DNA of 64,000 nt, taken from Bradymonadia bacterium (lineage in GTDB: Bacteria > Myxococcota_A > Bradymonadia > UBA7976 > UBA1532). The stretch is taken from contig JBKAGE010000034.1 of assembly GCA_046290225.1 (NCBI GenBank), positions 352,001 through 416,000 of the forward strand, written 5' to 3'. The notes beneath the pieces were generated by a model. The model was not told the DNA's origin, did no database searches, and worked only from the letters and a program-made list of their open reading frames with translations. The position numbers and the translations under genes were made by a program. Below, one piece after another: positions 22,570 through 25,766 of the stretch; position 1 is the stretch's first letter, and every line of letters begins with the position of its first letter.

Positions 22570-22585
22570 TGGCACGCCCCCTGCT
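22570..22585 (+). promoter_or_regulatory. Putative sigma54 -24/-12 promoter of the RNA cluster/TROVE operon
   Basis: TGGCACGCCCCCTGCT (one mismatch to consensus). The predicted +1 at ~22596 falls just before the first long stem at 22599. Confidence 0.75.
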
Positions 22586-22631
22586 CTAGCCTCAGAGCGC
22601 CGACAGAGAGGCACCTGCTCAGCGCAGACAA

Positions 22632-22747
22632 CGAGGCGTAGCTCAGCCAGGGAGAGCGCCCGCTGTTGAAAAATGGTGTCCGACTGTCTCGACGTCTTAC
22701 TTCGCTTTGGGGGCGGGAGGTCGCAGGTTCGAATCCTGCCGTCTCGC
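22632..22747 (+). tRNA. tRNA-Pro(TGG)-like RNA with a 42-nt insertion (22661-22702) in the anticodon stem; C discriminator; may be a tRNA-mimic ncRNA
   Basis: Acceptor CGAGGCG/CGTCTCG, D-arm GCTC/GAGC and T-arm GCAGG-TTCGAAT-CCTGC. Removing the insert gives CCCGC-TTTGGGG-GCGGG. Enclosed by a 28-bp stem (22599-22626/22752-22779). Confidence 0.75.
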
Positions 22748-22820
22748 AGTGTGCGCTGAGCAGGTGTCTCTCTGTTGGCCATTGGAGAAACCGGAAGAAG
22801 TTGCTGTTCGGCCCATGCAT

Positions 22821-22929
22821 CGAGGTGTAGCTCAGTCTGGTAGAGCGCTTGATGATGATGTCCGACTGCCTTGATGTCTTACTTCGCTTTGGGTGCGAGA
22901 GGTCGCAGGTTCGAATCCTGCCACCTCGA
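22821..22929 (+). tRNA. tRNA-Pro(TGG)-like RNA with a 35-nt insertion (22850-22884) in the anticodon stem
   Basis: Acceptor CGAGGTG/CACCTCG+A with intact D and T arms. Removing the insert gives CTCGC-TTTGGGT-GCGAG. Flanks 22804-22820/22929-22945 extend the acceptor helix. Confidence 0.75.
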
Positions 22930-22979
22930 TGGATGCGCCGAGCAGGATCTTCCTTCGGGTCGTGGGGCTGCGCCTCTTC

Positions 22980-23086
22980 GGGGGTGTAGCTCAGTGGTGA
23001 GAGCGCTATTACAGATTTCCGACTGTCTGGATGTCTTACTTCGACTGTCAATCGAGAGGTCGTGGGTTCGAATCCCACCGCCCCCG
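22980..23086 (+). tRNA. tRNA-Asp(GTC)-like RNA with a 34-nt insertion (23008-23041) in the anticodon stem
   Basis: Acceptor GGGGGTG/CGCCCCC+G. Removing the insert gives CTCGA-CTGTCAA-TCGAG. T-arm GTGGG-TTCGAAT-CCCAC. Enclosed by a perfect 15-bp stem (22959-22973/23091-23105). Confidence 0.75.
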
Positions 23087-23150
23087 CTCAGCGCAGCCCC
23101 ACGACATTTTCGTACGACGCAGTGACTCGAGATCGATGCGCCGTGCTCAT

Positions 23151-23224
23151 CGGAGTGTAGCTCAGCCTGGGAGAGCCGACGGTTTGGGGCCGTAAGGTCG
23201 CAGGTTCAAATCCTGCCACTCCGA
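23151..23224 (+). tRNA. tRNA-Pro(TGG), uninterrupted, CCA not encoded
   Basis: CGGAGTG/CACTCCG+A, anticodon arm GACGG-TTTGGGG-CCGTA (G-A mismatch at the top) and TTCAAAT T-loop. Confidence 0.85.
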
Positions 23225-23225
23225 C

Positions 23226-23420
23226 AGTGTTTTTCAGATCCTGCCCTTCGGGCGCCCCTCCGCTCCTACGGCTTCGCCTCCGTCGGCTGCGGGGCGTCCG
23301 GCCGCAGGCCGGACAGGATCGCGAGTGTTTTTAGGATCTTGCCCTTCGGGCGCCCCTCCGCTCATACGGCTTCGCCTCCGTCGGTTACGGGGCGTCCGGG
23401 CACAGGCCGGACAAGATCGC
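23226..23420. repeat. Two tandem copies (~97 nt) of a structured GC-rich palindromic repeat
   Basis: AGTGTTTTT..GATC(C/T)TGCCCTTCGGGCGCCCCTCCGCTC..CGGCTTCGCCTCCGTCGG..GGGGCGTCCGG..CAGGCCGGACA(G/A)GATCGC at 23226-23322 and 23324-23420. Confidence 0.9.
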
Positions 23421-23458
23421 GAGCTCACGCTCGCTGGTTCAGCCAAGGCGTTTTGACT

Positions 23459-23570
23459 GCGCCGTGATGGTTCGGGTGAGCTCATCCACTCAGGCTTCCG
23501 ACTGACTGGGTGTCTTACTTCGACTGAAACTCCAAGAATGTGGGTGGGCTCTCTCGAGCCATCACGGCGC
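23459..23570 (+). ncRNA. Long-hairpin ncRNA candidate carrying the shared 30-nt motif (23493-23522)
   Basis: 31-bp stem (23459-23489/23540-23570) with four G-U pairs and one mismatch. The loop contains GGCTTCCGACTGACTGGGTGTCTTACTTCG. Confidence 0.7.
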
Positions 23571-23583
23571 TGTCAATACTCAT

Positions 23584-23657
23584 CGGGGTGTAGCTCAGCC
23601 TGGAAGAGCGCACGGTTCGGGTCCGTGAGGCCGCAGGTTCAAATCCTGCCACCCCGA
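23584..23657 (+). tRNA. tRNA-Pro(CGG), uninterrupted, CCA not encoded
   Basis: CGGGGTG/CACCCCG+A, anticodon arm CACGG-TTCGGGT-CCGTG and canonical D and T arms. Confidence 0.9.
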
Positions 23658-23658
23658 C

Positions 23659-23755
23659 AGTGTTTTTCAGATCCTGCCCTTCGGGCGCCCCTCCGCTCCT
23701 GCGGCTTTGCCTCCGTCGGCTACGGGGCGTCCGGCCACAGGCCGGACAGGATCGC
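23659..23755. repeat. Third copy of the ~97-nt structured repeat
   Basis: Near-identical to 23226-23322 and again directly follows a tRNA-Pro 3' end. Confidence 0.9.
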
Positions 23756-23813
23756 AGGCTTCGCCTGCTGCCCATTTCCGCGTGCTGTGGTGACAACGGC
23801 ACTCCACCTGACC

Positions 23814-23939
23814 ACAGATGACTGTTGGTTTGGGTGCATCAACCCGACCAGGAGTCGGCACTTTGTGTGTCAACTCTTAGATGTCCAACTGACCGGGTGT
23901 CTTACTTCGACTGATGCATTCAAACGAGCAGTCATCTGT
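23814..23939 (+). ncRNA. Long-hairpin ncRNA/leader candidate carrying the shared 30-nt motif (23880-23909)
   Basis: 28-bp stem (23814-23841/23912-23939) with three G-U pairs and one mismatch. The loop holds a CCGAC/GTCGG hairpin and GATGTCCAACTGACCGGGTGTCTTACTTCG. Ends 57 nt before the TROVE ATG. Confidence 0.7.
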
Positions 23940-23996
23940 ATCGGGTGCATTTGACTCGTGACTGAGCGGAATACACCCGCTCGACTGGAGGATGAC

Positions 23997-25766
23997 ATGA
24001 CTCGCGTGTTGAAGACTCAGAACATGAAGCAGTGGCTGACCCAGGGCTGGATCAGCACCTACGAGGGCGCGCCTGCCTACGACTACAGCGACACGCACCC
24101 GCTCATCCACTTGGTGTTCACCATGGGCTCGGCCCTGTTCACCGACGGCTTCTATGAGACTGAGCAGGCCCAGGTCCGCACCTTCGCACAGTCCCTGCTC
24201 CGGGCGGCCCAGGTCGACCCCAAGTTTCCCTGGCAGTACGCCGCGTGGATGCGTGACCCCAAGCGCGGCAAGGGCAACCGGATCCAGGGCTCCCTGGCGC
24301 CGGCGCTGCTCGACGCCCTGTTGCCCAAGGATCTGCGAGACGAGGCAATCGTCGCCCAGTACACCGCCCTGGCTCTGAGCCATCGGCCCGATGACGTCAC
24401 CGCATGCCTGACGCACTACGAGCGGCTTGGCCTCGGCCGCCCCTCAAAGGCGGTGCGGCAGGGCATGGCGCTGGCTCTGACGAAGTTCGACGAGTACCAG
24501 CTGCTCAAGTACACCGGCAGCCGCCAGAAGGTACGCCTGTGCGATGTGATCTTGATGGTGCGCGAAGAGCTCGAGGCCCTCAGTGATGGTGGCGCTCTGG
24601 CGCTGGCTGTCGGTCGGTACCTGCACGCCCCCACACGATCACGGAAGGATCACCCCTCCCTCGATCGCATGCACCTGACCCGAGCGCGCCGCGCGCTCTG
24701 GGCGATGCCGCCCTCTGGGGCGCTGTCGCCGGAGCTTCCGCTGCAGCTCGAGGCCTCACGGGTGACCTGGGAGCAGGTGCTCAGCCACTTCGGTGCGGGC
24801 AATGATCCGAGCGTGAAGCGCCGCCGTAAGGCAGTGTGGTCGGCGCTGCTCTCCGTGCGCGGGCTGGTACCCGACACTGCTTTGCTGCGCAACGTGCGCA
24901 ACATGGTGGAGGCGGGTGTCTCTGCGGATCAACTCACCGAGGTGGTCTCTCAGCGCCGGTTCGACAAGGTCTGGCCGCACCAGGTCTACGCGGGCTACAA
25001 GGCCGCGCCTCAGCTCGGCGCCCACTTCGAGGCGATCTTCAGCCGCACCCTCGATCGGCTCCCCCTCGGGCGCCATCTGGGCATCGCTGACGCCTCGGGC
25101 TCGATGATGGTGAAGGTGGGTGGCTCGAAGGGCTCGCTCAACGCCATGGATGTGGCGCTGTGCTTCACTGCCATCATGAGCGAGAGCTCCGGCCTCGGCG
25201 CCTCGTTCTCTGATGGCCAGTTCGCGCAGTGGTCTGGCGGCAAGTGCCTCTCGATCGCTGCCCGTGGGCAGCACGAGGGCGCCCTGAAGTTCGCTCAGAA
25301 CCCGGCCCTGCGCCGAGGTATGGGCGGCACTCAGGTCTTCGGTGCCGTGATGGAGCTGATCAAGTGGCTGGTGGACCACCCAGAGGTGACCCCGCCGGAC
25401 TGCTTGTGGTTCTTCTCTGATATGCAGTTCCACCCGGCGGCGGGCGCGCTCAAGAGCCAGCCCAACGTCATCACGGAGCTGTCGAAGATCCACGGCGTGT
25501 CACTGCAAGGCCCGCCCCTCGAGGCGGCCCTGAAGCTCTACCGGAAGGCCATCGGTCCGGTGGACGTGGTGCTCTGGAATCTGGCTGCCTATGCGCCTGT
25601 GCCGGTGCCCGCGGACATGGAAGGTGTGCTCTTGGTGAGCGGCTTCGACACCAACACTTTCGACACCGTCAGCCGCTGGCGACAAGGGCTGCCGATGTCC
25701 GGTGAGGGTGCGCCGTCGGTGGAGGAGAGCCAGGAGATCGTTCTGGATAAGATCCGCGCGTTCTGA
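23997..25766 (+). CDS. TROVE-domain RNA-binding protein of the TEP1/p80-like type with C-terminal vWA domain
   Basis: GGAGG RBS. KFDEYQLLKY...VRLCDVI, TWEQVLS and ALLRNVRNM match the TEP1-type TROVE motifs FDEYQLAKY, TWE..LS and ALLRNLRN. vWA MIDAS DASGSM, GGT, FSDMQ, LWNLAAY and VSGFD. Confidence 0.85.
   Translation: MTRVLKTQNMKQWLTQGWISTYEGAPAYDYSDTHPLIHLVFTMGSALFTDGFYETEQAQVRTFAQSLLRAAQVDPKFPWQYAAWMRDPKRGKGNRIQGSLAPALLDALLPKDLRDEAIVAQYTALALSHRPDDVTACLTHYERLGLGRPSKAVRQGMALALTKFDEYQLLKYTGSRQKVRLCDVILMVREELEALSDGGALALAVGRYLHAPTRSRKDHPSLDRMHLTRARRALWAMPPSGALSPELPLQLEASRVTWEQVLSHFGAGNDPSVKRRRKAVWSALLSVRGLVPDTALLRNVRNMVEAGVSADQLTEVVSQRRFDKVWPHQVYAGYKAAPQLGAHFEAIFSRTLDRLPLGRHLGIADASGSMMVKVGGSKGSLNAMDVALCFTAIMSESSGLGASFSDGQFAQWSGGKCLSIAARGQHEGALKFAQNPALRRGMGGTQVFGAVMELIKWLVDHPEVTPPDCLWFFSDMQFHPAAGALKSQPNVITELSKIHGVSLQGPPLEAALKLYRKAIGPVDVVLWNLAAYAPVPVPADMEGVLLVSGFDTNTFDTVSRWRQGLPMSGEGAPSVEESQEIVLDKIRAF

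Follow-up and report, generated by a model that had tools for sequence, protein, structure and literature searches.

What kind of particle is encoded where a run of small RNA genes stands ahead of a TROVE-vWA gene? The question is raised by a 64,000-nucleotide stretch of a Bradymonadia bacterium genome (GenBank assembly GCA_046290225.1, contig JBKAGE010000034.1, positions 352,001 to 416,000 of the forward strand), referred to here as the window and numbered from its first letter, in which a sigma54 −24/−12 promoter (22570..22585, + strand), an array of RNAs and a TROVE-vWA gene (23997..25766, + strand) follow one another. An original prediction made from these letters proposed a new ribonucleoprotein system, in which motif-bearing tRNA-like and hairpin RNAs feed a TEP1-type protein. 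Our analysis leads to a different answer: the operon is probably a stand-alone sigma54 unit making a TROVE-vWA ring of Ro60-like type together with Y-class RNAs of its own, and, as judged from sequence comparison, the particle belongs to the Ro60/Y RNA kind and is not a new kind of particle.

The physical elements of the prediction are all present. Five RNAs, all on the + strand, share one motif. Three of them are tRNA-shaped, i.e., U1 (22599..22779, core 22632-22747), the tRNA-Pro-like U2 (22791..22958, core 22821-22929, with C1:G72 and A73) and U3 (22959..23105, core 22980-23086, with G73), each enclosed by an outer stem, which is long in U1 and 15 bp in U3. The other two, U4 (23455..23575) and U5 (23814..23939), are long hairpins without a tRNA body. 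Two extra tRNA-Pro genes, UGG (23151..23225, +) and CGG (23584..23658, +), lie among them, neither encoding CCA, and none of six open reading frames (ORFs) overlapping the array matches Pfam. The sigma54 box is conserved, with similar boxes upstream of orthologous arrays.

In an alignment of 26 distinct copies, the shared module begins with a hairpin of 7-8 bp (the handle), with RAC and CU on opposite strands at its far end; next come the linker UUACUUC, two base pairs and a loop of 7 nt. RAC stands at the start of the handle's hairpin loop and CU at its end, and the strand preceding the linker reads YUGGAYGYC. The five copies in the window (handles at 22675-22703, 22857-22885, 23014-23042, 23493-23521 and 23880-23908 in U1 to U5) are the only matches in the 8.58 Mb genome. 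Seven of the nine handle pairs have changed on both sides, a count that is inflated by kinship among the sequences, and 85% of cells are paired, which none of 500 shuffles reaches and which slid controls fall far below. We judge the array to be real and under selection. Together with the open forms described below, the handle defines the smallest candidate site, of 30 nt, at which a non-Rsr TROVE protein may bind.

The handle does not destroy the tRNA plan around it. In an Rfam scan, U1-U3 match RF00005 positions 1-71 in canonical order, with an insert of 34-42 nt between tRNA positions 29 and 30, so that the cloverleaf is unpermuted and bears a hairpin inside its anticodon stem, as predicted, and the 7-nt anticodon loop survives. 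The loop following the handle is of the Pro(UGG) type in U1 (22706-22712) and U2 (22888-22894), of the Asp(GUC) type in U3 (23045-23051), and of the GAA and GAU types in the body-less U4 (23524-23530) and U5 (23911-23917). The anticodon-loop hallmarks recur across the 25 non-rRNA copies (Y32 in 25, U33 in 24, R37 in 22, all three in 21), which carry 14 different triplets in a fixed register, three looking shifted by one base by eye. Two elements, L005 and L006, have near-identical bodies and different anticodons. In all 23 tRNA-bodied elements checked, a 7-bp acceptor stem is paired; agreement between body and anticodon is seen in four of them (U2, L007a, L008 and L009b), which is a weak test with one genome's tRNAs as the reference, and CCA is encoded in one. 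The last two counts suggest that most units are mimics rather than chargeable tRNAs. If the fixed register is moved one base back by eye at L007:4247-4297, that element has a UUA (ochre-reading) anticodon and its neighbour L007b a Lys CUU anticodon, with the handle at 31/32.

The adjoining gene encodes a protein of 589 aa. Its Pfam match is weak, while a structure model built from 64 homologs (predicted local distance difference test score 91) matches Ro60 along the full length, with a HEAT ring and a vWA domain spanning the whole protein, as in the TROVE/Ro60 superfamily. Residues D365, S367, S369, T445 and D475 are invariant in 64/64 homologs, and we take them to be the metal ion-dependent adhesion site of the vWA domain. 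Close homologs occur in Myxococcota and Bradymonadales records. Against the PDB, the family profile finds phiRo60 best (E 1.5e-19), followed by Ro60 (E 7.5e-8), and it scores non-Rsr phage and bacterial TROVE proteins at 74-89 bits, TEP1 at 29-37 bits and Rsr at 11-29 bits.

Two maximum-likelihood (ML) trees, of 71 rows (LG+G4) and 43 rows (LG+C20), were built from subsets of 99 collected sequences, in which TEP1 is represented by four vertebrate sequences on a long branch, eukaryotic Ro60 is absent, and the sequences we take to be Rsr were labelled from an N-terminal motif. In both trees the window protein falls in a clade of its own (support 100), which lies on the non-Rsr side (Shimodaira-Hasegawa-like approximate likelihood-ratio test, 99) together with TEP1, phiRo60, CcrColossus gp139 and the genome's second TROVE protein. 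The label non-Rsr TROVE is thus justified on these alignments, whereas TEP1-type is not established: the predicted TEP1/p80 assignment stands as to the shared motifs and the side of the tree, but TEP1 is sister to the window clade in neither tree, and approximately unbiased tests reject neither window clade plus Rsr (p 0.187) nor window clade plus TEP1 (p 0.52).

The RNAs travel with this gene. Among 113 genomes of the class, the gene is present in 13, and the same 13 hold all 26 handle matches of at least 33 bits (among the best 55 candidates scored per genome), every one on the same strand and within 2.6 kb of the gene, well inside the 4 kb of a broad Y RNA definition. The predicted association is thereby borne out, with the proviso that 25 of the 26 are training sequences or identical copies, so that its independent content lies in the lack of strong matches elsewhere, one new copy (L130) and the open forms of a sister subclade described below. 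The handle is upstream of the gene in nearly all cases, one copy being downstream (L012b). The gene itself is rare, with 13 of 401 phylum genomes matching at E 0.001, seven of them strongly.

How do these RNAs relate to known Y RNAs? In Rfam terms they are not YrlA: the Rfam scan gave no YrlA match, against RF02553 (threshold 69 bits) they score 25.8-30 bits, on partial matches, as ordinary tandem tRNAs do, and they show neither the permuted order nor the closed acceptor stem of YrlA. To that extent the original prediction, which set them apart from YrlA, was right. However, three observations stand against a new system. First, the UUACUUC linker occupies the site of the CUAc of the Rfam YrlA consensus, which stands immediately before tRNA positions 41-43 in a consensus without the anticodon mini-hairpin; a conserved YUAY after the Ro stem is described for YrlA (Chen et al., PMC4201824). 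Second, the sister subclade (loci at 33-43% identity) has the module in a form opened at its hairpin loop in 12 of 15 loci, CU-stem-UACUUC making up the 5′ end and stem-RAC the 3′ end. This is the topology of a Y RNA, whose binding stem is built from both ends, whereas the window RNAs carry a closed hairpin. The open-form stems, which pair across inserts of 11-40 nt, are paired in 131 of 136 cells (17 of 19 elements, two near-duplicates dropped), a figure that leans high because the partner arm was picked for optimal pairing, with extra score for RAC. Third, unpermuted RNAs also precede canonical Rsr genes of this phylum (L079, L080, L095 and L101); four tRNA-shaped ones stand before Rsr in L080, and L101 has a literal GCCGAAG and then UUAU. 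These three points together mark the RNAs as unpermuted relatives of YrlA. We infer that the closed-hairpin, unpermuted handle is the counterpart of the YrlA Ro-binding stem and YUAY, in one and the same architecture.

Unpermuted RNAs likewise precede the genome's second TROVE gene and those of L076-L078. The second operon (G000:C35:239913-242415) encodes a 536-aa protein of another non-Rsr clade behind a near-identical sigma54 box, and its RNAs comprise two unpermuted tRNA-shaped ones with a longer, GCAGUGA-bearing stem and one apparent open form. Apparently ordinary tRNA gene arrays precede TROVE genes at L086, L087, L092, L110 and L111.

YrlA is described as lacking an anticodon loop, and an origin from dimeric tRNA is supported (10.1101/312249). 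The position of CUAc, together with a mini-hairpin found at that site in the CcrColossus RNAs, suggests that the YrlA 'V' stem-loop may be a remnant anticodon loop. What is apparently new is the unpermuted form, anticodon loops that are both retained and varied, and a single relative whose handle lies in helix 69 of a degenerate 23S copy. A literature search that did not cover all key reviews found no description of an unpermuted Y RNA family; Table S1 of PMC4201824 gives predicted YrlA next to a number of TROVE genes from deltaproteobacteria, and some unpermuted loci may therefore be listed there already as weak matches.

The relative in question (L015:2741-5935, the same sequence in L021; PCBK01000136.1) is a solitary 23S-like gene of full length that immediately precedes a TROVE ortholog. 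It scores 2188 bits against RF02541 and is 68% identical to E. coli 23S, and its handle stands in helix 69, placed before a 7-nt loop in the register of the tRNA units. The P-loop, the A-loop, the A2451 region (peptidyl-transferase) and the sarcin-ricin loop are altered, and Rfam finds neither 16S nor 5S in the locus. A handle-bearing 23S-like gene was not found in 60 relatives, which leaves a single organism, and since the assembly has no canonical 23S, the copy could be the organism's own divergent rRNA. If real and general, the case would amount to a mimic the size of a ribosomal subunit, bearing a tag for a Ro-like protein.

How Y RNAs arose from tRNA, and what their tRNA-like domain is for, are presented as open questions in PMC4201824 and 10.1101/312249. 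The RNAs described here hint at an answer to the first, as a single protein clade has the handle in both closed and open form, which provides a direct structural path leading from tRNA to Y RNA, and the retained, varied anticodon loops make a proposed nuclease-decoy role testable loop by loop.

As to how the system may work, a polycistronic transcript would start at the sigma54 box and be cut into RNA units, whose handles the TROVE ring would bind on its outer surface; taken together, these steps are likely. Each RNA would then hold out, next to the ring, the elbow of a tRNA and an exposed anticodon loop. During stress on RNA or translation, the uncharged mimics could serve anticodon nucleases as bait or as competing decoys, or could tether enzymes that handle tRNA to the ring, and the linked true tRNAs could replenish the pool. 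This purpose, the weakest step, is put forward tentatively, on a level with plain tethering.

The plain tether, which shares the particle with our preferred explanation and differs only in purpose, would make the RNAs ordinary YrlA-like tethers or gates, linking the ring to PNPase or another elbow-binding factor, with the anticodon loops as neutral leftovers of tRNA; we regard it as a serious possibility, somewhat short of even odds. Tethering and gating are the known roles of Yrn1 and YrlA (PMC4201824), and phiRo60 associates with PNPase (PMC12135203). The missing mini-hairpin of the Rfam YrlA consensus points the same way, as do the many open-form RNAs that show no anticodon loop. However, neutral leftovers would fit poorly with the full set of loop hallmarks in 21 of 25 elements, including the body-less U4 and U5, and with the register kept before the helix 69 loop.

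Could the insert instead be removed? Archaeal introns occur at 29/30, and an intron-like element there would make the units reserve tRNAs in masked form, which excision followed by RtcB ligation would activate. The intact acceptor stems, the four agreements of body and anticodon, and three RtcB genes in the genome are compatible with such a reserve. On the other hand, body and anticodon mismatch in 19/23 (again a weak test), CCA is almost always missing, U4, U5 and the open forms hold no tRNA to restore, and the 23S copy has altered peptidyl-transferase residues, which makes the idea improbable. Similarly improbable is that the motif is a DNA element or cis-regulatory leader, an operator or autoregulatory site for the TROVE gene in a decaying tRNA array: its place upstream of the gene and the genome's other spare tRNA arrays would suit this, but the base pairs are compensatory, placement inside tRNA bodies is strand-specific, one copy lies downstream of the gene, and open forms pair across their inserts. 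We consider it very improbable that the particle is TEP1-like, unrelated to Y RNAs and attached to a bacterial vault or a machine resembling telomerase, since, for all the shared peptide motifs and side of the tree, TEP1 scores below the non-Rsr phage and bacterial proteins and near Rsr, and the RNA module maps onto YrlA.

A bolder extension of the decoy idea, which we consider doubtful, treats the handle as a portable TROVE tag, always 2 bp below a 7-nt loop and grafted onto translation look-alikes (anticodon arms with many different specificities and helix 69 in a dead 23S copy), giving an inducible bait panel through which the ring might sense or absorb ribotoxin attack. The unpermuted tRNA with handle would then be ancestral, with permuted YrlA and open Y RNAs arising by moved ends.

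Several points weigh against the Ro60/Y RNA and decoy interpretation, in addition to the kinship and the upward lean in the pairing counts and the search depth and training overlap of the association. The drawn cloverleaf is not the minimum-energy fold (U1 −25 vs. −44 kcal/mol, U2 −24 vs. −33 kcal/mol). On the equivalent strand, the one before YUAY, GNCGAAN0-1G does not occur, a GUCCGA look-alike sitting on the opposite strand. RtcB or RtcR was found in none of 56 neighbouring ORFs scanned; the genome's own RtcR and RtcB genes are all unlinked to the TROVE operon. The candidate activator palindrome described below has no exact match at the E. coli rtcB promoter and was not found near the genome's own rtc genes. 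As regards decoying, Salmonella YrlA is reported not to be cut by anticodon nuclease (PMC7790460).

That palindrome, TATC-N6-GATA (22424..22437, no strand assigned), is a candidate enhancer; with at most one mismatch it is present in 12 of 16 promoters examined, with a shuffle chance of 0.01-0.19 each, and the window copy is the only one of six exact copies in the genome with a sigma54 box nearby. A terminator-like hairpin of 14 pairs with a U tract lies 3′ of the TROVE-vWA gene (25805..25840, +), in a region with two such sites where 2.2 are expected by chance. Between the RNAs lies a dispersed palindromic repeat resembling repetitive extragenic palindromes, with two copies at 23236..23423 and a third at 23669..23755 (no strand assigned); it is about 88 nt long, has 19 genome matches, often adjoins tRNA genes and is not system-specific. 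The genome has 96 tRNA genes, with large additional arrays on contigs C37, C42 and C79 (10, 7 and 7 in a row).

No conserved neighbouring gene was found at orthologous loci. Occasional stress or repair neighbours comprise an AlkZ-like glycosylase inside the operon (L007:4560-5768), RlaP and NADAR (L027:1274-2774) and WYL (L030:6872-7888). Elsewhere in the genome (G000:C38:251356-254222), an RtcR gene is divergent from an ORF named by eye as RtcA-like, and rtcB was not found on that contig. Upstream in the window (17650-20970), ORFs read by eye as an extracytoplasmic-function-type sigma factor and an anti-sigma-like protein precede a YfbK-type vWA lipoprotein-like gene, which has its own sigma54-like box at 19317 and is unrelated to the TROVE/RNA finding.

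Among known systems, TEP1 and Tetrahymena p80 resemble the window protein as TROVE-vWA proteins with FxEYQLxKY, TWE and ALLRN motifs, and they work with vault or telomerase RNA. They are not resolved as its sister, and the window protein has no NACHT or WD40 parts and shows no evidence of a vault. The original prediction supposed that this branch had no described RNA partner, which does not hold for the non-Rsr side as a whole. There, phiRo60 of Thermus phage phiLo (PDB 9KOP, 9L5Y) binds two upstream RNAs (Yrl1/Yrl2) and PNPase in vitro (PMC12135203), and Y RNA-like RNAs are predicted for gp139 of Caulobacter phage CcrColossus (PMC12135203, citing Chen 2014). The phiRo60 protein is the closest in PDB sequence; its RNAs, picked by a CGAA motif (PMC12135203), do not match the handle model, and its locus, unlike the window, has no cloverleaf array upstream. 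In the RNA array of CcrColossus gp139, several members have the linker UACUUC-G followed by two base pairs and a loop of 7 nt, an intact Asn loop in one case; they differ from the window RNAs in being permuted, with a longer stem carrying GGCGUAG, and their best YrlA score is 42 bits vs. 69. The best plasmid match, D. gobiensis DGo_PB0212, which lies outside the trees, has a predicted YrlA in Table S1 of PMC4201824.

A further comparison is with Rsr/Ro60 and YrlA/YrlB of Salmonella and M. smegmatis (PMC4201824, 10.1101/312249). YrlA is permuted (T before D) with a closed acceptor stem, whereas the window RNAs have canonical order, a closed-hairpin handle and a kept anticodon loop; the window also lacks GNCGAAN0-1G on the equivalent strand, its protein lies outside the Rsr clade, and no rtcBA or rtcR is linked to it. 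The Salmonella operon is sigma54/RtcR-driven and induced by cleaved tRNA, with a decoy role proposed for YrlA (PMC7790460). Like these systems, the window combines a gene for a TROVE ring with tRNA-mimic RNAs and true tRNAs that adjoin it on the same strand, a protein-binding stem at the anticodon end, a YUAY-type linker in the same place, a sigma54 promoter, and tRNA-like and plain-hairpin RNAs within one array.

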